From IMG/VR virus record IMGVR_UViG_3300005326_000004: a DNA stretch of 20,000 nt. One strand, 5' to 3'. Each line of letters opens with the position of its first letter. The stretch's first letter is position 1. The notes under the pieces are model-generated. The model saw only the letters and a list, made by a program, of their open reading frames with translations. It was not told the origin of the DNA and made no database searches. This document shows positions 1 to 9,265 of this stretch, piece after piece. Both the position numbers and the translations under genes were made by a program. The DNA comes from an uncultured virus (IMG/VR IMGVR_UViG_3300005326_000004). Taxonomy: Duplodnaviria > Heunggongvirae > Uroviricota > Caudoviricetes.

Positions 1-726
1 TTAGATCGTGTGTCGTATTGTACATTACGGTACAGTAAGGAAGAATGTTTGGATTTACCAGACCAGATATATCAGGTGCGTACGGTTGAACCATCCGTTG
101 AGCAAACGCAAGTTACTCAAGAAGTCGTTTTAGGAATTCACGTCAACTCTCTTACCGAAAGCAACGTTGAGTACCATACGCAAAAATTGGTACAAATCAC
201 CGGGGGTTTCTTACTGGATAAGGAAGGTAGTTGTGAAGTATACAAAACAAATCCGAAGTTGCAGGAATTGGGAGAAACCCTTTCACAAATATCTGGTAAG
301 TGTATCATATATCATTATTACGTCAAAGAATCCGAATTGATCAGTGAGTACCTGAAAGATATGGGGTACTCGTTTGTTGTGGTAAATGGTAACGTAAGTA
401 AAGCCGAACAGAAAAAGCAAATTGATTCATTTATCAACGGGAATGTACAAGTACTTCTCGCAAATCCAAATAGTGGAGGTGAAGGGATTGATGGTTTACA
501 AGTATCATCCACCATCATATATTACAGCAGAAGTTATATGGGTAGTATATTGCGTCAACAATCGGAAGGGCGTATACACCGGCAGGGCCAAAAAAACAAC
601 TGCGTGTATATAGACTTGGTTATGCATAACACAATAGACGAAATACTTTTTGATAATATGTCCAATTGTTCAAAACAATTTAAGAGTGTACTTACGTATT
701 TGCAAAAAAAGTATAAAAAAGGTTGA
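1..726 (+). CDS. SNF2/SF2 helicase, C-terminal part (5' truncated by window)
   Basis: Frame is open from base 1. Contains 'LRYSKEECLDLP', helicase C motifs 'LLANPNSGGEGIDGLQ' and 'QSEGRIHRQGQ' (motif VI), and 'YIDLV..NTIDE'. Confidence 0.9.
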   Translation, partial: LDRVSYCTLRYSKEECLDLPDQIYQVRTVEPSVEQTQVTQEVVLGIHVNSLTESNVEYHTQKLVQITGGFLLDKEGSCEVYKTNPKLQELGETLSQISGKCIIYHYYVKESELISEYLKDMGYSFVVVNGNVSKAEQKKQIDSFINGNVQVLLANPNSGGEGIDGLQVSSTIIYYSRSYMGSILRQQSEGRIHRQGQKNNCVYIDLVMHNTIDEILFDNMSNCSKQFKSVLTYLQKKYKKG

Positions 727-751
727 CATATATACTATCATATGGTATATT
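723..751 (+). promoter_or_regulatory. sigma70-type promoter
   Basis: TTGACA (723-728), 17-nt spacer, TATATT (746-751) preceded by TGn (extended -10). The -35 box contains the helicase TGA stop. Confidence 0.75.
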
Positions 752-794
752 ATAATTGTGGGGGGAGGTGATACCGAACCCCATAAAAATAAGA

Positions 795-839
795 TGAAAC
801 CATATAACATACCGGACGTATAATATTATATGGGGGGGG
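795..839 (+). promoter_or_regulatory. putative ECF-type promoter, motif copy 1
   Basis: TGAAAC-N16-CGTA followed by TAATATTATATGGGGGGGG; a related motif recurs at 1888-1930. Confidence 0.45.
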
Positions 840-870
840 AAGGGAAGCCACCAATTGAAAGGGAAGGACA

Positions 871-1137
871 ATGAATATAAACACCACTGATACCACCCCA
901 ACGCCAAAGGATTATGATAATGCGTTGGATATTTTCTCACTGGAAAAACGGTATGACAAACATACCTACACCAAGGAAGAAAATATCGTGTTGTTCAATG
1001 CTATCCTGGCGTTCGTTATCCGTTACCGGGCTCACATCGAATATTACGGATTGGAAGAGTTCCTTACCAAGTTTGCTGAAACGTACGTTAAGGACGGATT
1101 GAATGCCGCTCTTGACAATGTTATCATGAAAGGGTAA
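871..1137 (+). CDS. hypothetical early protein, paralogue of 1142..1627
   Basis: Purine-rich RBS (GGGAAGGA). Shares 'FV(I/L)RY...I...GL..F...F...Y' with the next ORF. Confidence 0.75.
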   Translation: MNINTTDTTPTPKDYDNALDIFSLEKRYDKHTYTKEENIVLFNAILAFVIRYRAHIEYYGLEEFLTKFAETYVKDGLNAALDNVIMKG

Positions 1138-1141
1138 GACA

Positions 1142-1627
1142 ATGAAACGTTACATTGAAAAAACCACACCCGAGCAGGACGAAAAAAACGCCATACGTAT
1201 TTTCCGTATTTACAAAATGGCCAGGAACGGTAATATTGTACTTGATAAAGTGTTGAGAGAAATCTCCCTGGATATTCGGGGGGCTTGCACTCCCGGCCAG
1301 AAGAAGCGTTTTTACACGCAAATTTCTGCTATGAAGGATGCCGGTCTGTTCGCTCCGGATGAAACGGATGAAGAGAACATCTTTTACATCTCCGCTGCTA
1401 CTGAATTTGTCCTTCGTTACACAGATATCATTGATCAGTGCGGTCTGAATTATTTTATTGAGGACTTTTCCAGGTGGTACATTGAGCGGTCTAACAATGA
1501 ATCCCATGCGGAGTATACCAATGAATCGTTTGGACCGGGAAACGGGCTCGATCCTGATGGAACCAAACCCGTGTATGACGCTTGGGCTGCCGGGGATACC
1601 AAACACAACCGTACTGACGAGGCGTAA
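1142..1627 (+). CDS. hypothetical early protein (paralogue family); 3' end overlaps hammerhead 1
   Basis: 161-aa ORF packed directly after the previous gene; similar to both 871..1137 and 1964..2209. Confidence 0.8.
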   Translation: MKRYIEKTTPEQDEKNAIRIFRIYKMARNGNIVLDKVLREISLDIRGACTPGQKKRFYTQISAMKDAGLFAPDETDEENIFYISAATEFVLRYTDIIDQCGLNYFIEDFSRWYIERSNNESHAEYTNESFGPGNGLDPDGTKPVYDAWAAGDTKHNRTDEA

Positions 1628-1666
1628 AGCGCCGAAACGGGAGAATACTCTCTCCCGTATACGGTT
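1607..1666 (+). ncRNA. type I hammerhead ribozyme 1 (cleavage GUA|, after 1659)
   Basis: Stem I AACCGTA/TACGGTT; core CTGACGA (1614-1620); stem II GGCG-TAAAG-CGCC; GAAA (1634-1637); stem III CGGGAGA/TCTCCCG; U16.1-A17. All core nucleotides are present. Confidence 0.93.
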
Positions 1667-1695
1667 AGCAGTACCAGCAACAAAGGAGGTTTATT

Positions 1696-1887
1696 ATGTA
1701 CGAAGTCACTTCCACAAGAAACGGTTATGTTCTGTGCTATGTCAATGTCCGGAGCATTGCGGATGCCAGACATATGGCAGAATGCCTTGAAAAGGAAGAC
1801 CCGTCCATAAAGGTGATTATTTACCATGTTCATTACGTTTTGACCAAGGGTTCTTTTTGCAAGATTATCCGTGAAATTGAAAGATAA
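1696..1887 (+). CDS. hypothetical protein (63 aa)
   Basis: Strong RBS AAAGGAGG just upstream of the ATG. Confidence 0.75.
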   Translation: MYEVTSTRNGYVLCYVNVRSIADARHMAECLEKEDPSIKVIIYHVHYVLTKGSFCKIIREIER

Positions 1888-1930
1888 TGGAACCACCCCG
1901 TAGGTCCAAACGTGTAATATATATGGGGGG
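1888..1930 (+). promoter_or_regulatory. putative ECF-type promoter, motif copy 2
   Basis: TGGAAC-N17-CGTG followed by TAATATATATGGGGGG; matches 795-839. Confidence 0.45.
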
Positions 1931-1963
1931 ATGGATAACGTACTCAACAAAAGGAGCAATACA

Positions 1964-2209
1964 ATGGAAAAGAATAACAACTACAATCCGTCCAAGCACA
2001 CGATGGAGACCGCGCTTCACATCTACAAAATGGTGAAATATGATAACATTGCGATGGAAGACGCAGTGAAGGAAATCGCTCTCACAATCGAAGAATGCCG
2101 GGAACACGAAAATCAGCATGACATTGCCGAAGTCATGGAAGTTCTGATGGAGAAGAAGAAGGAAATGGAATTGGAGGAAATGCTCAAAAATGTTTCGATT
2201 ACGGCGTAG
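1964..2209 (+). CDS. hypothetical early protein (paralogue family); stop abuts hammerhead 2
   Basis: RBS AAGGAG at 1951-1956 favours ATG 1964. 'IYKMVKYDNIAMEDAVKEIALTI' aligns with 'IYKMARNGNIVLDKVLREISLDI' of 1142..1627. Confidence 0.8.
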   Translation: MEKNNNYNPSKHTMETALHIYKMVKYDNIAMEDAVKEIALTIEECREHENQHDIAEVMEVLMEKKKEMELEEMLKNVSITA

Positions 2210-2273
2210 TTATCCTGACGAGTCGTGTAGCGACGAAACAGAGTGAACCCAATCCGTTCACTCTGTCGATAAC
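2209..2273 (+). ncRNA. type I hammerhead ribozyme 2 (cleavage GUC|, after 2267)
   Basis: Stem I GTTATC/GATAAC; core CTGACGA (2215-2221); stem II GTCG-TGTAG-CGAC; GAAA (2235-2238); stem III CAGAGTGAAC/GTTCACTCTG; U16.1-C17. Confidence 0.95.
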
Positions 2274-2305
2274 AACCAAAAACCCATAACGAAAAGGAGC
2301 AACCA

Positions 2306-2479
2306 ATGGATGAATTAATTCACTACTTTGGTTGCGGTATTTTTGAAGGTTTTGGAGTGGTATTATTCGTGTATATCAAAAATAAGTTTTTCAGCAAAGT
2401 GGAACAAAAGGAATCCGAATTGAAGGAAGCGTTTCCGAACTTCCATTTTCCGATTGAAGAAGGTGAGTTGTATGATTAG
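2306..2479 (+). CDS. small membrane protein, 57 aa (not in ORF track)
   Basis: RBS AAAAGGAG. Translation MDELIHYFGCGIFEGFGVVLFVYIKNKFFSKVEQKESELKEAFPNFHFPIEEGELYD; N-terminal hydrophobic stretch followed by lysines. Confidence 0.7.
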   Translation: MDELIHYFGCGIFEGFGVVLFVYIKNKFFSKVEQKESELKEAFPNFHFPIEEGELYD

Positions 2480-2540
2480 CATTATTGGTGTTGCAATCAT
2501 TTGGGGAGCCGTTTACTACGTAATATGGAGGATGAACTAA
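2472..2540 (+). CDS. 22-aa hydrophobic peptide (not in ORF track)
   Basis: MISIIGVAIIWGAVYYVIWRMN, preceded by AAGGTGAG; its TAA overlaps the next ATG (TAATG). Confidence 0.5.
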   Translation: MISIIGVAIIWGAVYYVIWRMN

Positions 2541-2746
2541 TGGAAACATTATTGACTCCTTTGGTCCAGGGACTGGTATTCGGATGTGGCACAGCGGTCA
2601 CTTTCGGAATCGTTATGCTCGCTGAATGGTTGATCAAGGAAACGTTCAAGCACAGGGGAGGGGGTAATCCCCTCCTCCATTGGGGGATACAATGTTTTTA
2701 CGCAATGCAGAAGAAGTACTCCATATATTGGAGCAAAACGCAATAA
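2540..2746 (+). CDS. small membrane protein
   Basis: GGAGG RBS before ATG 2540; TM-like segment LVQGLVFGCGTAVTFGIVMLAEWLI. The 3' end is uncertain because it runs through a hairpin and overlaps the next ORF. Confidence 0.55.
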   Translation: METLLTPLVQGLVFGCGTAVTFGIVMLAEWLIKETFKHRGGGNPLLHWGIQCFYAMQKKYSIYWSKTQ

Positions 2747-2856
2747 TTCGTAACCGGGGAGAAGTGGTTGACATGCACATTGTACGGCAATTGTTCAGCC
2801 AATTTATGGTGGAGGATGTCGAAGATTTGGAAGATTCCCCTACATTCAAGGAATAA
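2692..2856 (+). CDS. hypothetical protein, 54 aa, acidic tail (not in ORF track)
   Basis: GGGGGA RBS. Translation MFLRNAEEVLHILEQNAIIRNRGEVVDMHIVRQLFSQFMVEDVEDLEDSPTFKE; ends 3 nt before the next start. Confidence 0.6.
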   Translation: MFLRNAEEVLHILEQNAIIRNRGEVVDMHIVRQLFSQFMVEDVEDLEDSPTFKE

Positions 2857-2859
2857 GAC

Positions 2860-3150
2860 ATGGCTCGATTGCCGTATTACAGCGTACACAAAATCAAGAA
2901 ATTCCATGAAGAACACGGAGGTACGTTTTTTGATAAAAAACGTTTCGAGTTCAACCGATGGCATATGATTGACTTTGGGTACAAACGTTACAAGGGGGAA
3001 ACATACCTATACAAAAAAGTTGGTAAACTGGTTGTATGGCGTTTGGATAAAGTCACCGGGGAATTAATCGAAACCTCGTTTAGTGACTTTGATCATTCCG
3101 TTGTTTTTTGCAGACCAGCAACACGGTGGAATTCACGGAGGAATAAGTAA
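2860..3150 (+). CDS. hypothetical phage protein
   Basis: AAGGA RBS; TAATG coupling to the next gene. Confidence 0.7.
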   Translation: MARLPYYSVHKIKKFHEEHGGTFFDKKRFEFNRWHMIDFGYKRYKGETYLYKKVGKLVVWRLDKVTGELIETSFSDFDHSVVFCRPATRWNSRRNK

Positions 3151-3455
3151 TGGCTATAAAATCAACAGAAATTGAATGTGTTGATGTATACGCTTATGGC
3201 CTCGCTGCCGAATATCGGTTTACCATGCGAGTCCCAAAAATGCCCGATTCCAAACAGCAGATCCTGCTGGCAATCAAGGACGCACAAACGTTAAACGAAG
3301 GAGATCTCTACCCACACCTGATCAACAATCCCATCCGGTATATTTCGTTACCGGGAGGCAAAAGTTATTTTGCCGTGAACAAAACAAAATGTGTTGGCTA
3401 TTCATTCAGGGAAGTTATTGAAATCAGTAAAAAGGAGATGAAATATGAAGTTTGA
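3150..3455 (+). CDS. hypothetical phage protein
   Basis: GGAGG RBS; coupled to both neighbours. Confidence 0.7.
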   Translation: MAIKSTEIECVDVYAYGLAAEYRFTMRVPKMPDSKQQILLAIKDAQTLNEGDLYPHLINNPIRYISLPGGKSYFAVNKTKCVGYSFREVIEISKKEMKYEV

Positions 3456-3774
3456 AGTGGCAAAACGGGAGAGACCTTCCCATTACCGGAAAAACATGGA
3501 CCCCACTGTCTGGTCTTTTTTGGAGGCCGTGGATGCATTGGAAAACCAAGATGGATTGTGTATTCTCGTCCCTTGGGAACCGAGTGATACAGGATTAACA
3601 CTGAAAGCCAAGAAGCAAAGAATCCTTTCGTACCTACATCGGTACCTTTCAAACAAAAAATTCTCCGTTCTCAAAATGGATGAAGACAATACGTTGGGGA
3701 TTTTCCGCAGGTCTGATACCCCAGTGGTGAAGGGTAAAATACACAACGTCAATAAAATGGAAAAAACATGTTGA
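3445..3774 (+). CDS. hypothetical protein, possibly small DNA-binding
   Basis: AAGGAG RBS; basic 109-aa ORF. Confidence 0.7.
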   Translation: MKFEVAKRERPSHYRKNMDPTVWSFLEAVDALENQDGLCILVPWEPSDTGLTLKAKKQRILSYLHRYLSNKKFSVLKMDEDNTLGIFRRSDTPVVKGKIHNVNKMEKTC

Positions 3775-3799
3775 CATAACATATAATATGTATTATATT
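3771..3799 (+). promoter_or_regulatory. sigma70-type promoter
   Basis: TTGACA (3771-3776), 17 nt, TATATT (3794-3799). Same design as 723-751, again containing the upstream TGA stop. Confidence 0.75.
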
Positions 3800-3809
3800 A
3801 TATGTCTTG

Positions 3810-3862
3810 GTACAGGGGTGGGGCTTTTCACGGTAACGGTTCATCCACCCCCATCCCTGTAC
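3810..3862 (+). other. 5'-leader stem-loop
   Basis: GTACAGGGGTGGGG / CCCCATCCCTGTAC form a 14-bp stem (one G-U) with a 25-nt loop, directly after the promoter. Confidence 0.6.
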
Positions 3863-3887
3863 ATAAATACAATTATGGAGGCACACA

Positions 3888-4070
3888 ATGAAATTAGGTG
3901 AATTGGTTGACTTGTTGACCAGTTTGCTGGAAAACGGCTCAAGCAATCCGGATGATACCGTAATCGTGGAAGCGTACCCACACAGTTACGATATTGAAGA
4001 TATTCAAATCGGGTACGAAAGTGGGGAGCATTTTGTTTCCATCGTTGCAAAGGAAGGGCGAGCATGGTAG
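3888..4070 (+). CDS. hypothetical protein (60 aa)
   Basis: GGAGG RBS; typical small phage ORF starting 'MKLGELVDLL'. Confidence 0.7.
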   Translation: MKLGELVDLLTSLLENGSSNPDDTVIVEAYPHSYDIEDIQIGYESGEHFVSIVAKEGRAW

Positions 4071-4840
4071 GTACAGATCGTGAATTGGTCAAAAACAATT
4101 TCCGCACAACGGAAGATGCTGTTATGAACGTACCGCAGCCGGAGTTCACTAACACATGGAGGCCGTACGCACACAACATTATCATTGAAGGGCTCACCCG
4201 AGTGACCAGGGAAATGGGGCTTACGGTTGTTCACAAACAGTATTCCCTGAATGAGAAAGGTACGCAAATGTATGGGGCCTGGGGAATTGATACCGATATG
4301 AAAAAAGGGTCCGAAGGTCACCACATATATCAAGCCATCATATTTCGTAATTCGATTGACAAGGCGTTTTCTTTCGGCATTGCGGGAGGAACGGACACCT
4401 GGGTATGTGAGAACCTGGCTGTGTGGGGAAATTTCATTGAAATCCGGAAACACTCGAGTTCTTTGGACAGGACGGAATTGGTTTCGGCAATGTTCAAAGG
4501 AATCAAATCCCTCAAGCCCGAATTGGATAAAGTCATTGAATGGCATGATCTCATGAGGGAAATTCGGCTGGATACCAAGACGGTTGAAGCCCTGGCATAT
4601 CAAGCCATCATGCAAGGGGTAATCAATCTGAAAAAGTTACCCGTGTTCCATCGGTTGCTTTTCGGTGAGGATCACCCGTACGATAACACTACGTTGTTTG
4701 GATTCCACGGGGCATGTACCGAGGTTTTGAGGGATGGTCAAATCAATTCAACGATGATCGAACGCCAGGAGAAGTTGAATACGTTGATCAAGATGGAATG
4801 TCCCGCACTGCATGAGGTGTATGGTCCTAACGACATATAA
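4064..4840 (+). CDS. DUF932-family protein
   Basis: Motifs 'TWRPYAH' and 'FRNSIDKAFSFGIAGG..TWVCENL' resemble the DUF932 signature. Confidence 0.75.
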   Translation: MVGTDRELVKNNFRTTEDAVMNVPQPEFTNTWRPYAHNIIIEGLTRVTREMGLTVVHKQYSLNEKGTQMYGAWGIDTDMKKGSEGHHIYQAIIFRNSIDKAFSFGIAGGTDTWVCENLAVWGNFIEIRKHSSSLDRTELVSAMFKGIKSLKPELDKVIEWHDLMREIRLDTKTVEALAYQAIMQGVINLKKLPVFHRLLFGEDHPYDNTTLFGFHGACTEVLRDGQINSTMIERQEKLNTLIKMECPALHEVYGPNDI

Positions 4841-4879
4841 AGGGGTTTTATGCAAGGCACAACGTGTAAGGGTCCACGC

Positions 4880-5013
4880 GCACCCCCGATGGTAAACACA
4901 TAAGTAATCAAGAAGTACCATACCTAAACCCAGGTCAAAAACCATAGGTAATAAAAACATAAGGGTACAGCAACGTAAATGTACATACGAGCACCCCCGA
5001 TGGTAAACACATA
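4880..5013. repeat. 23-bp perfect direct repeat GCACCCCCGATGGTAAACACATA x2
   Basis: Copies at 4880-4902 and 4991-5013 (111-bp period) in the non-coding gap upstream of the primase. Confidence 0.9.
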
Positions 5014-5038
5014 TAGTATATGAAGTCAAAATATGGTG

Positions 5039-5069
5039 AAAGGGGAGGCATGGGAAGCACTCCCCTTTT
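5039..5069 (+). terminator. hairpin or possible intrinsic terminator before the primase
   Basis: AAAGGGGAG...CTCCCCTTTT inverted repeat ending in Ts. Confidence 0.45.
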
Positions 5070-5091
5070 AAAACCAATTCGGAGCCAGCAT

Positions 5092-6069
5092 ATGAATGTC
5101 AAAAAAATACTCAATGCATTTGGAATCATGTACGAGGAAACGCATCCAGCGGTTTCCAAAAAGTGCGTTGGCATTGACTGCCCGTACTGCCATGATACCG
5201 GTAAGCATATGGGTATTTTTCTTGACACGGGGAAAGCGTTTTGTTGGAAATGTCAAAAAACCCGGTTCATATCCCAAGTACTTTACAAATTGAAAGGGGT
5301 AACACAGGAACAGTTTGAAGCGGTTTCCGGTATACGGGTACGAAATGATGATCAACCAAAGAACAATTTGGACCGGATATTCAAAAAAACGAATACCAAT
5401 TATGTACAGGTGGAGGCAGATAACTCTGAAATCATAAAACACTTTTTATCATTTGAATCCATCAGCAGTAAACCGTATTTATCAGCAATCCATCATGTAA
5501 TGTTGGATTATGTTACATCCCGTTTCACTTGGGATGAATTGAAGTTATACGGTGCTGGGTATGCTCTCAGCGGGCCTATGATGAATCGGCTTGTAATCCC
5601 GTACCCAGCACCGTTTATTGGACCACCAATAGGTTTTGTGGGGAGGGATTTTACCGGGATAGCCCAACGGAAATATTTTGTTACACCAGGGCTCTCACTA
5701 CATTCACACGTATACCCAAATAGTGCATTTGGGGATAGACGAACGGATGTACTGGTTGTGGTAGAAGGCATTTTCGATTCATGGGCTATTACGGATTATT
5801 TGGCAGTGGCTTTATGCGGAAAAGCCATTTCAATCAAGCAGATTTCAAAAGTTATATCAATGTACCCAACAATGGATATGACCCTTGTAATCTGTTTGGA
5901 TGGAGATACGTCAATCCGTGATCGGGGAAATGTACAACGTGAGTTAGGGGTATTTTTCAAAAATTCGGTTATGGTGAACTTACCGGAGTTATTGGACCCG
6001 TCAAGTATACCAACCAATGAATTATCGTATTACATTGACAAAGGAGTTGAGTCACATGGGAAAGATTAA
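5092..6069 (+). CDS. DnaG-like DNA primase (Zn finger + TOPRIM)
   Basis: CPYC...CWKC zinc ribbon, 'IGFVGRDF', and TOPRIM motifs 'VVVEGIFD' and 'ICLDGD'. The GGAG RBS favours ATG 5092, although the ORF is open from 5020. Confidence 0.88.
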   Translation: MNVKKILNAFGIMYEETHPAVSKKCVGIDCPYCHDTGKHMGIFLDTGKAFCWKCQKTRFISQVLYKLKGVTQEQFEAVSGIRVRNDDQPKNNLDRIFKKTNTNYVQVEADNSEIIKHFLSFESISSKPYLSAIHHVMLDYVTSRFTWDELKLYGAGYALSGPMMNRLVIPYPAPFIGPPIGFVGRDFTGIAQRKYFVTPGLSLHSHVYPNSAFGDRRTDVLVVVEGIFDSWAITDYLAVALCGKAISIKQISKVISMYPTMDMTLVICLDGDTSIRDRGNVQRELGVFFKNSVMVNLPELLDPSSIPTNELSYYIDKGVESHGKD

Positions 6070-6241
6070 AACGGATTTGAAGGAATTGAGTCCGAACGAA
6101 TACAAAAAGAAGTGGTTGACCATCAGAGCATATTCGGAAAAATACGGATGGAACAAAGACACAATCTACAAATGGGTAAAGAAAGGGAAAATTGAAGCGC
6201 GGAAATTCGGAAAAATGATCCTCGTTCTCGATGCCAAATGA
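6056..6241 (+). CDS. HTH (excisionase/MerR-like) DNA-binding protein
   Basis: 'WLTIRAYSEKYGWNKDTIYKWVKKGKIEARKFGK' is a typical HTH_17 pattern; AAGGAG RBS before ATG 6056. Confidence 0.8.
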   Translation: MGKIKTDLKELSPNEYKKKWLTIRAYSEKYGWNKDTIYKWVKKGKIEARKFGKMILVLDAK

Positions 6242-6784: not shown

Positions 6785-7195
6785 ATGTGTCTTAATATAC
6801 GACTTGGTAAACGGATAATGAAAAAGGATACCACGATTTATAGAGTAGTAGAAGTACGTGATGGTTTATATTACTCTTGCCTTTTCGATAAGGATAGTGG
6901 TTTTCATCACGGAGTAAACCGTGCAGTAGTCTGTCCTGTTGTGTATATGACAAAAAAAGGTAGACGAATGTATCCATCCGGTTATCATTGTTTCACAAAA
7001 CGTAGTGATGCAAAAATATATAAAGAAGAATTTTTGGAAGCGCTTTACAAGTGTCTTGACTTACCGTTACCATACTATAAAATTGTTGTGTTCACTATTC
7101 CACAAGGAGTAAAAACATATGCGGGATATACTAAATTAGAAAACACAGATAGAAAAATGTATACGTTGGTTTCCCCCATACTTGTTTTGAAATGA
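6785..7195 (+). CDS. tandem paralogue 1 (MCLxIRLG / YPSGYHCF family)
   Basis: AAGGAG RBS; shares motifs with the next two ORFs. Confidence 0.85.
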   Translation: MCLNIRLGKRIMKKDTTIYRVVEVRDGLYYSCLFDKDSGFHHGVNRAVVCPVVYMTKKGRRMYPSGYHCFTKRSDAKIYKEEFLEALYKCLDLPLPYYKIVVFTIPQGVKTYAGYTKLENTDRKMYTLVSPILVLK

Positions 7196-7210
7196 ATGAA
7201 AGGGTAAACT

Positions 7211-7645
7211 ATGTGTCTTGATATACGCCTTGGTAAACGGATAATGAAAAAGGCTACCACGGTTTACAAAGTGGTACGGGTTATTTACCTACGCGGTCAG
7301 GAGATTTATACACCATGCTTTTTCCCGTTGTCCCCTGTTTTTAAAAAAGGTGTTAATCATGCGGATGTGACTGCAATTTTGTATTCCACATATAGGGGCT
7401 ACCATACATATCCATCGGGTTATCATTGTTTCCAGAAAGTGGGGGATGCCGAAGCATATATGAAGGAGTACTTGAATGGTGAGCTTGCACATGATGAATC
7501 CGTCAAAATTGTTGAATTCACCATCCCGCGAGGAGTGGAAGTATATGCGGGCTACACCTCGGTATTACCATCCACACATTTGAGGAATAGTCCAGTAGTT
7601 GGCAAACTGTATACGTTGGTTTCCCCAATTCTCATTTTGGAATAA
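7211..7645 (+). CDS. tandem paralogue 2
   Basis: MCLDIRLG...YPSGYHCF...IPRG...LYTLVSP. Confidence 0.85.
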   Translation: MCLDIRLGKRIMKKATTVYKVVRVIYLRGQEIYTPCFFPLSPVFKKGVNHADVTAILYSTYRGYHTYPSGYHCFQKVGDAEAYMKEYLNGELAHDESVKIVEFTIPRGVEVYAGYTSVLPSTHLRNSPVVGKLYTLVSPILILE

Positions 7646-7662
7646 ACGAAAGGAATACACTT

Positions 7663-8085
7663 ATGTGTTTAGATATCCGCCTGGGAGACAAAGTTCTAAT
7701 GAGGGACACGGTTGTTTACAAAGTGGTAAGGTATTACAAACAAGGTGCAATGTCGTTTTTTGAACCGTGTTTCTTTGGAAGATACAGACATTTCAAAAAA
7801 GGTGTAAACTACGCAAGTGTACAACCAATTGAATATTATACATCGAAAGGGTTACGTACGTACCCGTCCGGGTATCATTGCTTTACGAGACGGGAAGCTG
7901 CAAAAATCTACATGGAAGAATTTTTTCAGGAGGAAGGTGCAACAATTTTGGAGTTTGTTATCCCAAAAGGTACCAAAGTATCCACCGGGTATACGGAAGT
8001 GTTTGATATAGTTGAACTTCGCAAATTGTATACGTTGGTTTCCCCGGTAATTGTGTGGAATAGAGAAGAAAGGTATGGTATATAA
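7663..8085 (+). CDS. tandem paralogue 3
   Basis: MCLDIRLG...YPSGYHCF...IPKG...LYTLVSP. Confidence 0.85.
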   Translation: MCLDIRLGDKVLMRDTVVYKVVRYYKQGAMSFFEPCFFGRYRHFKKGVNYASVQPIEYYTSKGLRTYPSGYHCFTRREAAKIYMEEFFQEEGATILEFVIPKGTKVSTGYTEVFDIVELRKLYTLVSPVIVWNREERYGI

Positions 8086-8608: not shown

Positions 8609-8803
8609 ATGCCGTTGGATGTGATCATAAGAGGAAAAACAATCCACATTGAAGATAGTGAACGTGTTCAATGTGAGATATGGACTCGGGTAATGGGTTA
8701 TTACCGACCTGTAAGTGAGTTCAATATCGGGAAGGTCCAGGAATTCAAAGACCGTGTTTCCTTTATTGAAAGGGGAATAGATGGCAACACGTCATTACCA
8801 TAA
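8609..8803 (+). CDS. nrdD: stand-alone NrdD C-terminal glycyl-radical-domain-like protein (64 aa)
   Basis: 'CEIWTRVMGYYRPVSEFNIGKVQEFKDR' matches the class III RNR C-terminal motif (RxxGY.RP...N.GK..E...R); GGGGAGGAG RBS. Confidence 0.8.
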   Translation: MPLDVIIRGKTIHIEDSERVQCEIWTRVMGYYRPVSEFNIGKVQEFKDRVSFIERGIDGNTSLP

Positions 8804-9152: not shown

Positions 9153-9265
9153 ACAACAAAGCAAAAGGGCTGGTTAAAGGCCAGCCCCGTGATTACATAA
9201 AAGGACATTATATAAAATTGTTAGATCGTGGAAAGAAACACCCTTGGAGAGTTTGGCATGAGTGA
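9089..9265 (+). CDS. small CxCGCG-motif protein
   Basis: 'LCKCGCG......YIKGH' is a motif often seen at the N-terminus of phage HNH/NUMOD proteins; no nuclease domain follows. Confidence 0.55.
   Translation: MEEKPVLCKCGCGMPAPICKVNNKAKGLVKGQPRDYIKGHYIKLLDRGKKHPWRVWHE

Follow-up and report, generated by a model that had tools for sequence, protein, structure and literature searches.

Clustered hammerhead ribozymes that flank genes in prophages were described by Perreault et al. 2011 (PMC3088659), who proposed that a long transcript would be processed by them into gene-length mRNAs and raised circular products as an alternative. Three tandem prophage arrangements are reported there to cleave during in vitro transcription and one to cleave in E. 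coli; of the 18 hammerheads conforming to the consensus, 14 were active in vitro and four inactive. The review of Weinberg, Weinberg and Hammann 2019 describes the roles of bacterial self-cleaving ribozymes as largely elusive. Outside bacteria and their phages, the hammerheads of viroids, satellite RNAs and retrozymes provide two self-cleavage sites that bound a unit-length RNA whose ends are a 5'-OH and a cyclic phosphate, and the type I hammerheads of eukaryotic RNA viruses occupy short untranslated gaps, with a cut that falls from a few to tens of nucleotides ahead of the next ORF start, a position for which a role in cap-independent translation has been proposed.

The locus considered here belongs to an uncultured phage (IMG/VR record IMGVR_UViG_3300005326_000004), from which a stretch of 20,000 nucleotides, hereafter the window, was analysed. 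It carries two type I hammerheads on the + strand, HH1 (1607..1666) and HH2 (2209..2273). As in the clusters of Perreault et al. 2011 (PMC3088659), canonical gene-strand hammerheads flank a short block of non-conserved small genes: the two motifs, 608 nt apart, enclose two ORFs in phage DNA. The present phage is however an orphan with different genes, both of its hammerheads are of type I whereas type II is what the 2011 paper stresses in bacteria, and the 2011 arrangements were shown to cleave while cleavage of the window pair is predicted. Like the viroid, satellite and retrozyme hammerheads, HH1 and HH2 are predicted to bound a unit-length RNA with the same end chemistry; yet those units repeat one ribozyme so that their ends rebuild it, whereas the stem I sequences of the window are not interchangeable and its unit consists of two ordinary protein-coding genes carried by a DNA phage. 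The likeness to eukaryotic RNA viruses lies in the short gaps that are filled and in the distance to the next ORF, but the window is that of a bacterial DNA phage with Shine-Dalgarno starts. The locus is an ordinary new example of the layout published in 2011, and the idea of self-processing is not new; the locus adds one clean two-ribozyme example to a picture that it leaves unchanged.

The two motifs and their phage context

Family profile searches detected helicase, primase, tape measure and endolysin genes in the window, which is that of a tailed phage, and phage genes lie on both sides of the ribozyme pair. The location of both hammerheads within a phage replication-gene block is supported. 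No tRNA genes were found in the window. Relatives were sought at several levels: blastn of positions 1-5000 against phage records gave no match, the primase had no match across genome contigs, and the ORF at 1142..1627 had no homologue in viral or metagenome contigs and matched only itself in a set of 5.8 billion proteins. A search with the C-terminus of the helicase returned 28 loci, all of them only 24-28% identical, and these unrelated helicase loci, taken as a negative control, contained no hammerhead. The exact HH1 sequence did not occur in the viral and metagenome contigs either. Since the phage has no close relatives in the searches made, there is no locus-specific covariation to draw upon. 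The sole sequencing run containing the stretch is a DNA run, which may be its source, and no RNA run is listed.

Both ribozymes were read from the sequence and recovered by a descriptor scan, a covariance model and minimum-energy folding. In HH1, stem I pairs 1607-1613 with 1660-1666 (7 bp) and is followed by the core CTGACGA at 1614-1620 (C3 U4 G5 A6 N7 G8 A9), then by a 4-bp stem II (1621-1624/1630-1633) whose first pair is G-C and whose loop is TAAAG. GAAA at 1634-1637 provides G12, A13, A14 and A15.1, the last of these forming with U1658 the A15.1-U16.1 pair that opens an 8-bp stem III (1637-1644/1651-1658) with a 6-nt loop. Position H17 is A1659, a non-G base, which places the predicted cut at 1659/1660. 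HH2 has a 6-bp stem I (2209-2214 with 2268-2273), the same CTGACGA core at 2215-2221, a 4-bp stem II (2222-2225/2231-2234) with a first G-C pair and a TGTAG loop, GAAA at 2235-2238, and an 11-bp stem III (2238-2248/2256-2266) opened by the A2238-U2266 pair and closed by a 7-nt loop; its H17 is C2267, likewise non-G, for a predicted cut at 2267/2268. The claim of the first-pass annotation that the coding strand bears two complete type I hammerheads, with canonical cores, perfectly paired stems, a 4-bp stem II closed by G-C, a 5-nt loop and GAAA, was thus borne out feature by feature. Its further statement that each ribozyme starts at a stop codon is right for HH2, the first base of which, G2209, is the last base of the upstream TAG, and wrong for HH1, in which the stop TAA (1625-1627) sits inside loop II and the initial 21 nt coincide with the final seven codons, counting the stop, of the ORF at 1142..1627.

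The descriptor scan of the window returned type I matches only, with none of type II or type III, and a relaxed scan of types I and III allowing one core mismatch added no further hammerhead. In both motifs the core and all 35 stem pairs are intact, with no mispair adjoining the core. When the window was subjected to 2000 dinucleotide shuffles and both strands were scanned, two type I matches appeared at lax stem thresholds, and motifs equal to either observed hammerhead never did (0/2000). Model R1 is a covariance model for which 43 sequences were taken from a set of 96 distinct type I hammerheads on other viral contigs, and none from the window. It scores HH1 at 52.1 bits (E 5.9e-13) and HH2 at 37.9 bits (E 7.5e-9), the next best match in the window reaching 8.3 bits. 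For both, the minimum-energy fold is the hammerhead three-way junction (z of -4.55 for HH1 and -4.64 for HH2), and none of 200 shuffles was as stable as HH1 or HH2. The alignment A1 shows 100% pairing, a circular result because its sequences were chosen by a pairing descriptor, and it was left unused as structure evidence.

These figures bear on the reading in which both motifs match the hammerhead consensus by chance. Such a reading could appeal to the bare core pattern, which is not significant in the window (two observed against 1.08 expected), and to the Rfam gathering thresholds, which neither motif reaches. It is countered by the shuffles, which yielded two lax matches and none as good, by the E-values of model R1, and by the occurrence of two same-strand motifs 600 nt apart, each in a gap that runs from a stop codon to a ribosome-binding site. 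Given the shuffles and model R1, chance is effectively refuted, and the presence of two real type I hammerhead motifs on the + strand is confirmed. In cellular genomes, used as a negative control, only 21 of 51 bare core matches were complete hammerheads.

Regarding Rfam, a check with its hammerhead models had been advised in the first-pass annotation. No match was found in the window at gathering thresholds, and no match to the type I model was reported; in E-value mode only partial alignments to RF00008 (type III) were obtained, at 21.8 and 14 bits against a gathering score of 48.5. Twister, pistol, hatchet and other ribozymes were absent from the window at E up to 5. The two motifs share with clan CL00010 (RF00163 for type I, RF00008 for type III and RF02276 for type II) the catalytic core and the three-helix junction, RF00008 aligning over the core and stem II, but they differ from these families by scores that fall far below the threshold. 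Since the gathering thresholds also miss every one of the many descriptor-complete hammerheads in 20 viral comparison loci, the low scores reflect the reach of the models rather than non-membership, and a whole class of such phage hammerheads is overlooked at these thresholds.

Type I hammerheads of other viral contigs

The set of 96 distinct type I hammerheads mentioned above was gathered from IMG/VR loci. A start codon follows the cut by 10-49 nt in 78 of the 96 (median 27 nt), compared with 34% of 1920 random positions, and the upstream stop ends between -10 and +9 nt from the first base of the ribozyme in 75 of 89. Clustering is common: two or more hammerheads on one strand were present in 33 of 125 loci, and hammerheads on both strands in none of the 125. 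Four positions outside the core are nearly invariant in this family, namely an A before the 6-bp stem I (86/87), an A after it (83/87), and, in loop II, a U at position 1 (87/90) and an A at position 3 (87/90). These positions may make up the tertiary contact by which stem I touches loop II and which hammerheads require for speed at cellular Mg2+.

HH1 and HH2 resemble this family, characterised by a 6-bp stem I, a 4-bp stem II and a 5-nt loop II, in topology, stem II and loop size, in a loop II that starts with U, in the A that precedes stem I, in a start codon that follows the predicted cut by 36-38 nt, and in an upstream stop at or in the ribozyme. Besides having statistical support, the motifs thus fit a phage family that is widespread and shares their placement. 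They differ from it by a longer stem III (8 and 11 pairs, the mode of the family being 6) and by stem III loops of 6-7 nt in place of tetraloops. More precisely, HH1 can form a seventh stem I pair, and its stop lies 20 nt inside the ribozyme, whereas a stop at least 10 nt inside occurs in only two of 89; its A at position 17 is found in 5/96. The C-G pair of HH2 that adjoins the core is found in 1/96. Each of the two keeps three of the four nearly invariant positions: HH1 has a U, not an A, just after the 6-bp stem I, and HH2 has a U, not an A, at position 3 of loop II, a base seen there in 1/90. Given these departures, either ribozyme could be slow at cellular Mg2+.

This is the point at which another explanation has to be weighed, that of a ribozyme cassette spreading among phages, of which the window would carry weak or inactive copies, harmless between genes and without a role in expression. 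It would account for a departure of each copy at a nearly invariant non-core position, for the lack of conservation of the flanked genes, both in this phage and in published cases, and for the frequent sharing of stem I by adjacent copies elsewhere, as local duplication would give; the four inactive hammerheads among the 18 that conform to the consensus, as tested in vitro by Perreault et al. 2011 (PMC3088659), also speak for it. However, the intact core and stem pairs of both motifs are not expected of decaying elements, and a placement running from stop codon to ribosome-binding site fits the family rule. We therefore hold inactive cassettes to be unlikely.

Taken together, the stop placement, the spacing between cut and start, the A-bracketed 6-bp stem I and the type I orientation, which leaves the ribozyme with the upstream RNA, point to a role in supplying each downstream gene with a clean, defined leader, and these family statistics are more useful than the window locus itself.

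Predicted cleavage of the replication-block message

Downstream of the ORF of 161 aa at 1142..1627 (+ strand), which overlaps HH1 by its 3' end, the + strand carries an ORF of 63 aa (1696..1887; ribosome-binding site AGGAGG at 1684-1689, start 36 nt past the first cut site), one of 81 aa, or 92 aa if its start is at 1931 (1964..2209, the TAG of which ends at the first base of HH2), and one of 57 aa whose N-terminal part includes a hydrophobic stretch (2306..2479; AGGAG at 2295-2299, start 38 nt past the second cut site). Both cut-to-start distances, together with their AGGAG(G) sites, agree with what had been annotated at first, and so do the coordinates of the 608-nt fragment (1660..2267, + strand) that would carry the ORFs 1696-1887 and 1964-2209 if both ribozymes cut. 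For the flanked ORFs, neither Pfam nor PHROG yielded a match, even with E values up to 5 allowed; the family searches gave none for the ORF at 1142..1627, an atlas search with the ORF at 1696-1887 returned unnamed clusters only, and the look-alikes of the ORF at 1964-2209 in the atlas were not usable, being unnamed or below the bar. The 608-nt fragment was also considered as a foreign insertion and this was rejected, its GC content of 0.431 giving no signal next to flanks at 0.407 and 0.434.

A promoter-like site on the + strand at 723..751 (TTGACA, 17 nt, TATATT, with a TG), known as a consensus match only, could start the transcript bearing both ribozymes; the assumption of a single transcript depends on this one match, and the total of promoter-like sites in the window does not exceed that of shuffles (30 against 25.9 +/- 4.8). 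The designation "early operon" is not supported, having been deduced from the helicase and primase genes and from this one site. Of the remaining gaps in the operon, 3775-3887 alone has an unusually good fold; tried as a ribozyme, it was rejected, having no ribozyme match and being a plain hairpin beside a promoter-like site.

In the reading that we favour, to which a probability of about 0.7 can be given, HH1 and HH2 would both be catalytically competent type I ribozymes that split the replication-block message at two gene boundaries into segments with separate fates. Both would be transcribed within one polycistronic message, and each would fold once its 60-65 nt are made and cut itself in vivo at 1659/1660 or 2267/2268, dividing the message without a host RNase. 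Because the topology is of type I, nearly all of the ribozyme would stay on the upstream piece, which would acquire a compact structured 3' end with a 2',3'-cyclic phosphate, whereas the downstream piece would begin with a 5'-OH and retain 6-7 leftover nt, followed by a short leader running straight to the ribosome-binding site. The 608-nt RNA would thereby begin at U1660 with a 5'-OH and terminate at C2267 in a 2',3'-cyclic phosphate, its 3' end being formed by the body of HH2. The three predicted segments (up to 1659, 1660-2267 with its two small ORFs, and from 2268 onwards) would likely have separate lifetimes and translation rates, the net effect being that of a natural "insulator" between genes. 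The processing of a polycistronic RNA by self-cleavage, as proposed in the first-pass annotation, is in this sense partly supported, and it is the same deduction as the one made for prophage clusters in the account given by Perreault et al. 2011 (PMC3088659).

Two possible consequences of cleavage deserve separate mention. The unmasking of ribosome-binding sites was dropped as the main mechanism on the grounds of predicted accessibility, which is the same before and after cleavage (0.57 versus 0.48 for one site and 0.27 versus 0.26 for the other), and no simple translational gain is therefore visible. As for the general claim that a 5'-OH stabilises RNA, it is not supported, the effect being host-dependent: RNase J1 of Bacillus subtilis degrades the 5'-OH product that the glmS ribozyme generates.

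The unchanged accessibility also weighs against the view that the ribozymes are translation-coupled switches, in which the ribosome ending the upstream ORF would unfold stem I and the core, so that cleavage would report upstream translation and set the downstream yield. What gives this view its appeal is the overlap of HH1 with the last seven codons of the ORF at 1142-1627, the start of HH2 on the final base of a stop codon, and the 75 of 89 family members with an upstream stop within -10 to +9 nt of the ribozyme start; with a stop at the ribozyme start, a terminating ribosome would indeed be expected to cover stem I and the core. Tight phage gene packing alone could nevertheless explain the overlap, and we consider such switches improbable.

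Possible fates of the predicted 608-nt RNA

Beyond mere release, the 608-nt RNA might be joined into a circular two-ORF mRNA, either by the reverse reaction of the hammerhead or by an RtcB-type ligase. The ends of hammerhead products have the very chemistry that RtcB joins, and this suits the proposal. In the window, however, the 5' end of the fragment, when kept in register, can make just 4 of the 6 pairs needed for stem I of HH2, with a mismatch adjoining the core, and the co-fold that scores best is shifted out of register, with C3 of the core tied up in it. Moreover, family searches of the 39 ORFs of the window, which covers 20 kb of the genome, gave no RtcB match, and circular or spliced products of clustered hammerheads were sought by Perreault et al. 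2011 (PMC3088659), who detected none. Circularisation, which the first-pass annotation had put forward for this fragment, was consequently not retained and is judged very improbable.

A broader form of the same idea would regard hammerhead-flanked phage gene blocks as RNA modules that close into circles. Here, the circle would need a host RtcB-type ligase because the two stem I sequences do not match, and the notion appears barely credible; were it true, the product would be a long-lived circular mRNA. Circular products in general gain some favour from other viral contigs, in which the stem I strands are fully interchangeable in 12 of 27 adjacent type I pairs, against 9% of pairs taken from different loci. 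There, the 5' end of the excised RNA can restore stem I of the downstream ribozyme exactly, which would make ligation by the ribozyme itself possible, and the RNA could rebuild a whole hammerhead on itself.

Two type I hammerheads in the window

Two complete type I hammerhead motifs, with an open stem I and capped stems II and III, can be read from the sequence within 1607-2273 on the + strand. Hammerhead 1 (HH1, 1607-1666) runs AACCGTA, CTGACGA, GGCG-TAAAG-CGCC, GAAA, CGGGAGA-ATACTC-TCTCCCG, TA, TACGGTT, with its scissile bond 3' of A1659, and hammerhead 2 (HH2, 2209-2273) runs GTTATC, CTGACGA, GTCG-TGTAG-CGAC, GAAA, CAGAGTGAAC-CCAATCC-GTTCACTCTG, TC, GATAAC, with its scissile bond 3' of C2267. 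Both have the canonical core throughout (C3-A9, G12-A14, the A15.1-U16.1 pair and H17) and stems with standard pairs at all positions, and they were the sole matches in a descriptor scan of both strands of the window for all three topologies. Sequence reading and scan thereby confirm the two complete type I hammerheads described in the first-pass annotation, whose coordinates are correct for both cut sites and for the 608-nt fragment (1660-2267) expected if both ribozymes cut. The distances it gave from cut to ATG (36 nt to 1696 and 38 nt to 2306) and the AGGAG(G) ribosome-binding sites before these two starts are likewise found in the sequence. Its statement that each hammerhead starts at a stop codon holds for HH2 and fails for HH1: the ORF 1142-1627 stops at a TAA in loop II of HH1, its last seven codons, stop included, lying within the ribozyme.

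The bare CTGANGA...GAAA pattern is not enriched in the window (2 observed vs 1.08 expected). The full motif is above chance: 2000 dinucleotide-preserving shuffles of the whole 20-kb window, scanned on both strands, gave 2 type I matches at lax stem thresholds, and none of the 2000 matched HH1 or HH2 in quality. Besides, the predicted minimum-energy structure of both regions is a three-way junction, with predicted fold energies of -26.9 kcal/mol for HH1 and -25.5 kcal/mol for HH2 (z -4.55 and -4.64, respectively), and none of 200 shuffles was as stable as either.

The search with Rfam hammerhead models that had been proposed as a check gave no match in the window with Rfam 15 at gathering scores, and E-value mode returned only partial core alignments to the type III model (21.8 and 14 bits, for a threshold of 48.5). 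Since the same gathering search also returned nothing in 20 IMG/VR loci rich in descriptor-complete hammerheads, this miss reflects the restricted reach of the curated thresholds and is no counter-evidence. Among the matches listed, other viral contigs contribute 96 distinct type I hammerheads, of which 43 are exactly 52 nt long, have a stem I of 6 bp and a stem II hairpin of 13 nt, and align free of gaps; a covariance model, R1, was built from these 43 as an independent check. With filters off, R1 recovered HH1 at 52.1 bits (E 5.9e-13) and HH2 at 37.9 bits (E 7.5e-9), and no other match in the window scored above 8.3 bits; pair counts on the R1 alignment were set aside as circular, the sequences having been picked by a pairing rule.

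By every sequence criterion examined, HH1 and HH2 are hammerhead ribozymes. Perreault et al. 2011 (PMC3088659) report activity for 14 of 18 consensus-conforming candidates, which gives a reasonable prior for the activity of HH1 and HH2; the motifs are real, and they very probably self-cleave.

The type I family in viral contigs

An IMG/VR scan for the core, a 4-bp stem II and a 5-nt loop returned at least 125 loci. Among the matches listed, 114 of 125 loci carry complete hammerheads, and the raw matches comprise 117 of type I, 38 of type III and 9 of type II, a few of the type III matches using the same core as a type I match. Removal of identical sequences leaves 96 distinct type I ribozymes among the matches listed, a markedly uniform set: stem I has 6 bp in 87/96, with an A preceding it in 86 and following it in 83 of these 87; the first base of loop II is U in 87/90 and its third is A in 87/90; and a stem III of 6 bp with a tetraloop is the commonest. 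The A's bracketing stem I and the U1 and A3 of loop II look, from their conservation in sequence, like a tertiary contact for the open-ended stem I.

As for placement, again among the matches listed, the cut falls 10-49 nt (median 27) before an ORF start codon in 78 of 96 type I ribozymes, a rule that 34% of 1920 positions drawn at random from these strands also satisfy. An upstream ORF was found for 89 of the listed type I ribozymes, and in 75 of them its stop codon ends -10 to +9 nt from the first base of the ribozyme. Two to four hammerheads lie on one strand in 33/125 of these listed loci, and on both strands in none; two or more occur in 20 of the 63 loci of at least 2.5 kb. As controls, hammerheads were absent from 28 unrelated viral loci recruited by helicase similarity, and a search of cellular genomes totalling 596 Gb with a similar core pattern gave 51 matches, only 21 of them complete hammerheads, scattered over many phyla.

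HH1 and HH2 have the topology, stem II, loop size and placement typical of this family. They are mild outliers, stem III being longer in both. HH1 has U1666 where the family has an A after stem I, which gives it a seventh stem I pair; its position 17 is A (as in 5/96 among the matches listed), and the stop codon is found 20 nt into the ribozyme. In HH2, loop II position 3 is U in place of A, and the core-adjacent pair is C-G, as in 1/96 among the matches listed.

Proposed transcript processing and the possible fate of the 608-nt fragment

The best-supported reading, and one already published, is that self-cleavage splits a polycistronic transcript of the phage where one gene gives way to the next. 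Perreault et al. 2011 (PMC3088659) report that single genes in prophages, or short blocks of them, are often flanked by multiple hammerheads, a layout taken to imply that long phage transcripts are cut down to mRNAs the length of an operon or a gene; they describe the expected cleavage in three tandem arrangements during in vitro transcription and, for the Agrobacterium tumefaciens arrangement, in E. coli too. The HH1/HH2 locus is in this respect ordinary, clustered hammerheads punctuating phage genes having been in print since 2011. A 2019 review (Weinberg, Weinberg and Hammann) repeats the clustered phage arrangement and calls bacterial ribozyme roles "largely elusive", and a 2026 paper describes type I hammerheads as usually DNA-encoded motifs in bacteria and bacteriophages. 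No literature settling hammerhead function in phages was found in a search that left most subscription journals outside.

In the type I orientation, cleavage would leave the ribozyme body with the upstream RNA, where it would form a structured 3' end with a cyclic phosphate, and the downstream RNA would carry a 5'-OH, then a short leader of 36-38 nt into the ribosome-binding site. Unmasking of the ribosome-binding site by cleavage is not predicted at either site, the predicted unpaired probability from this element to the ATG being 0.57 uncleaved vs 0.48 cleaved at site 1, and 0.27 vs 0.26 at site 2.

Excision of the 608-nt two-gene RNA (ORFs 1696-1887 and 1964-2209) is a fair prediction from the motifs. 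The first-pass annotation had further proposed that this RNA could be circularised or stabilised. Circularisation is unsupported: the fragment's 5' end pairs in register with the stem I strand of HH2 at 4/6 positions, with a mismatch at the core-adjacent pair, so that stem I is not rebuilt, and the best predicted co-fold of the two is out of register and occupies core C3; ribozyme-catalysed circularisation is therefore not expected. The RtcB family was not found among the 39 window ORFs scanned, though a host enzyme could conceivably act in its place. Perreault et al. 2011 (PMC3088659) report looking for spliced or circular products and detecting none.

Among the matches listed, 27 pairs of type I hammerheads are neighbours on the same strand; in 12 of these the upstream 3' strand of stem I fits the downstream 5' strand 6/6, compared with 9% of comparison pairs from different loci. 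Such partners differ in stems II and III and bound fragments of 250-1714 nt; they were seen in IMG/VR loci L020, L021, L032, L043, L045, L069, L080, L095 and L096. These interchangeable strands could reflect local duplication, or could let the excised RNA rebuild a hammerhead.

Stabilisation of the 608-nt RNA is possible and would depend on the host. The effect of a 5'-OH on RNA stability depends on host RNases: in E. coli it shields RNA from 5'-end-dependent decay of the RNase E type, but in Bacillus subtilis it makes the glmS ribozyme product a target of RNase J1. On this point, the review by Weinberg, Weinberg and Hammann (2019) confirms only that degradation ensues after glmS cleavage.

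Genomic setting

Family matches of the ORFs identify the window as part of a tailed phage. A + strand gene block, from 1 to about 9500, holds many small ORFs without a family; on the same strand, 1-726 codes for the C-terminal part of a helicase, 5020-6069 for a primase and 6017-6241 for an HTH protein. The genes of a second block, on the - strand, are for an M15 endolysin, a tape measure protein of 1086 aa, a tail assembly chaperone and head-tail connector proteins. No recognisable function was found for the ORFs around the ribozymes (161 aa upstream, 63 and 81 aa between, 57 aa downstream), and no close relatives of the phage in any of the viral, metagenome, genome and protein sets searched. 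The 20-kb window yielded neither additional hammerheads, with one core mismatch tolerated, nor other Rfam ribozymes.

An identical promoter-like site (TTGACA, 17 nt, TATATT) occurs in the gaps 723-870 and 3771-3887, and the copy at 723-751, a consensus match only, could be the start of a transcript spanning both ribozymes. The two gaps also have in common an AT-rich 29-nt element (804-832 and 3776-3804, 79% identical), and a 14-bp G/C-rich hairpin without a U-tract is predicted at about 3810-3862 in the second (region z -4.83). The 161-aa ORF 1142-1627 and the 81-aa ORF 1964-2209 share a short motif, IYKM..(G/D)NI...EI.L.I (BLASTP E 5e-5 across 25 residues), and a related motif, IYKWVKKGKI, lies in the HTH_17-matching part of ORF 6017-6241; the three may encode small DNA-binding proteins. 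A 27-nt direct repeat (4876-4902 and 4987-5013, 96% identical, spacing 111 nt), in the 179-nt gap directly 5' of the primase gene, is a candidate for a regulatory or origin-like element.

Further along the + strand, three tandem paralogues (6785-7195, 7211-7645 and 7663-8085) share a match to phrog_13450, of unknown function; at the DNA level the repeats (6785-8085) are 62-87% identical. The 64-aa ORF 8609-8803 (+) matches PF13597, a family of anaerobic ribonucleotide reductase (E 7.7e-9), over the last ~30 family positions only, a region that carries the glycyl-radical site, and may represent a 'spare part' encoded as a separate protein. Near the convergence of the + and - gene blocks, a strong 8-9-bp G/C hairpin at 9166-9188, with a T-run on the - strand, is likely the terminator of the - strand genes.
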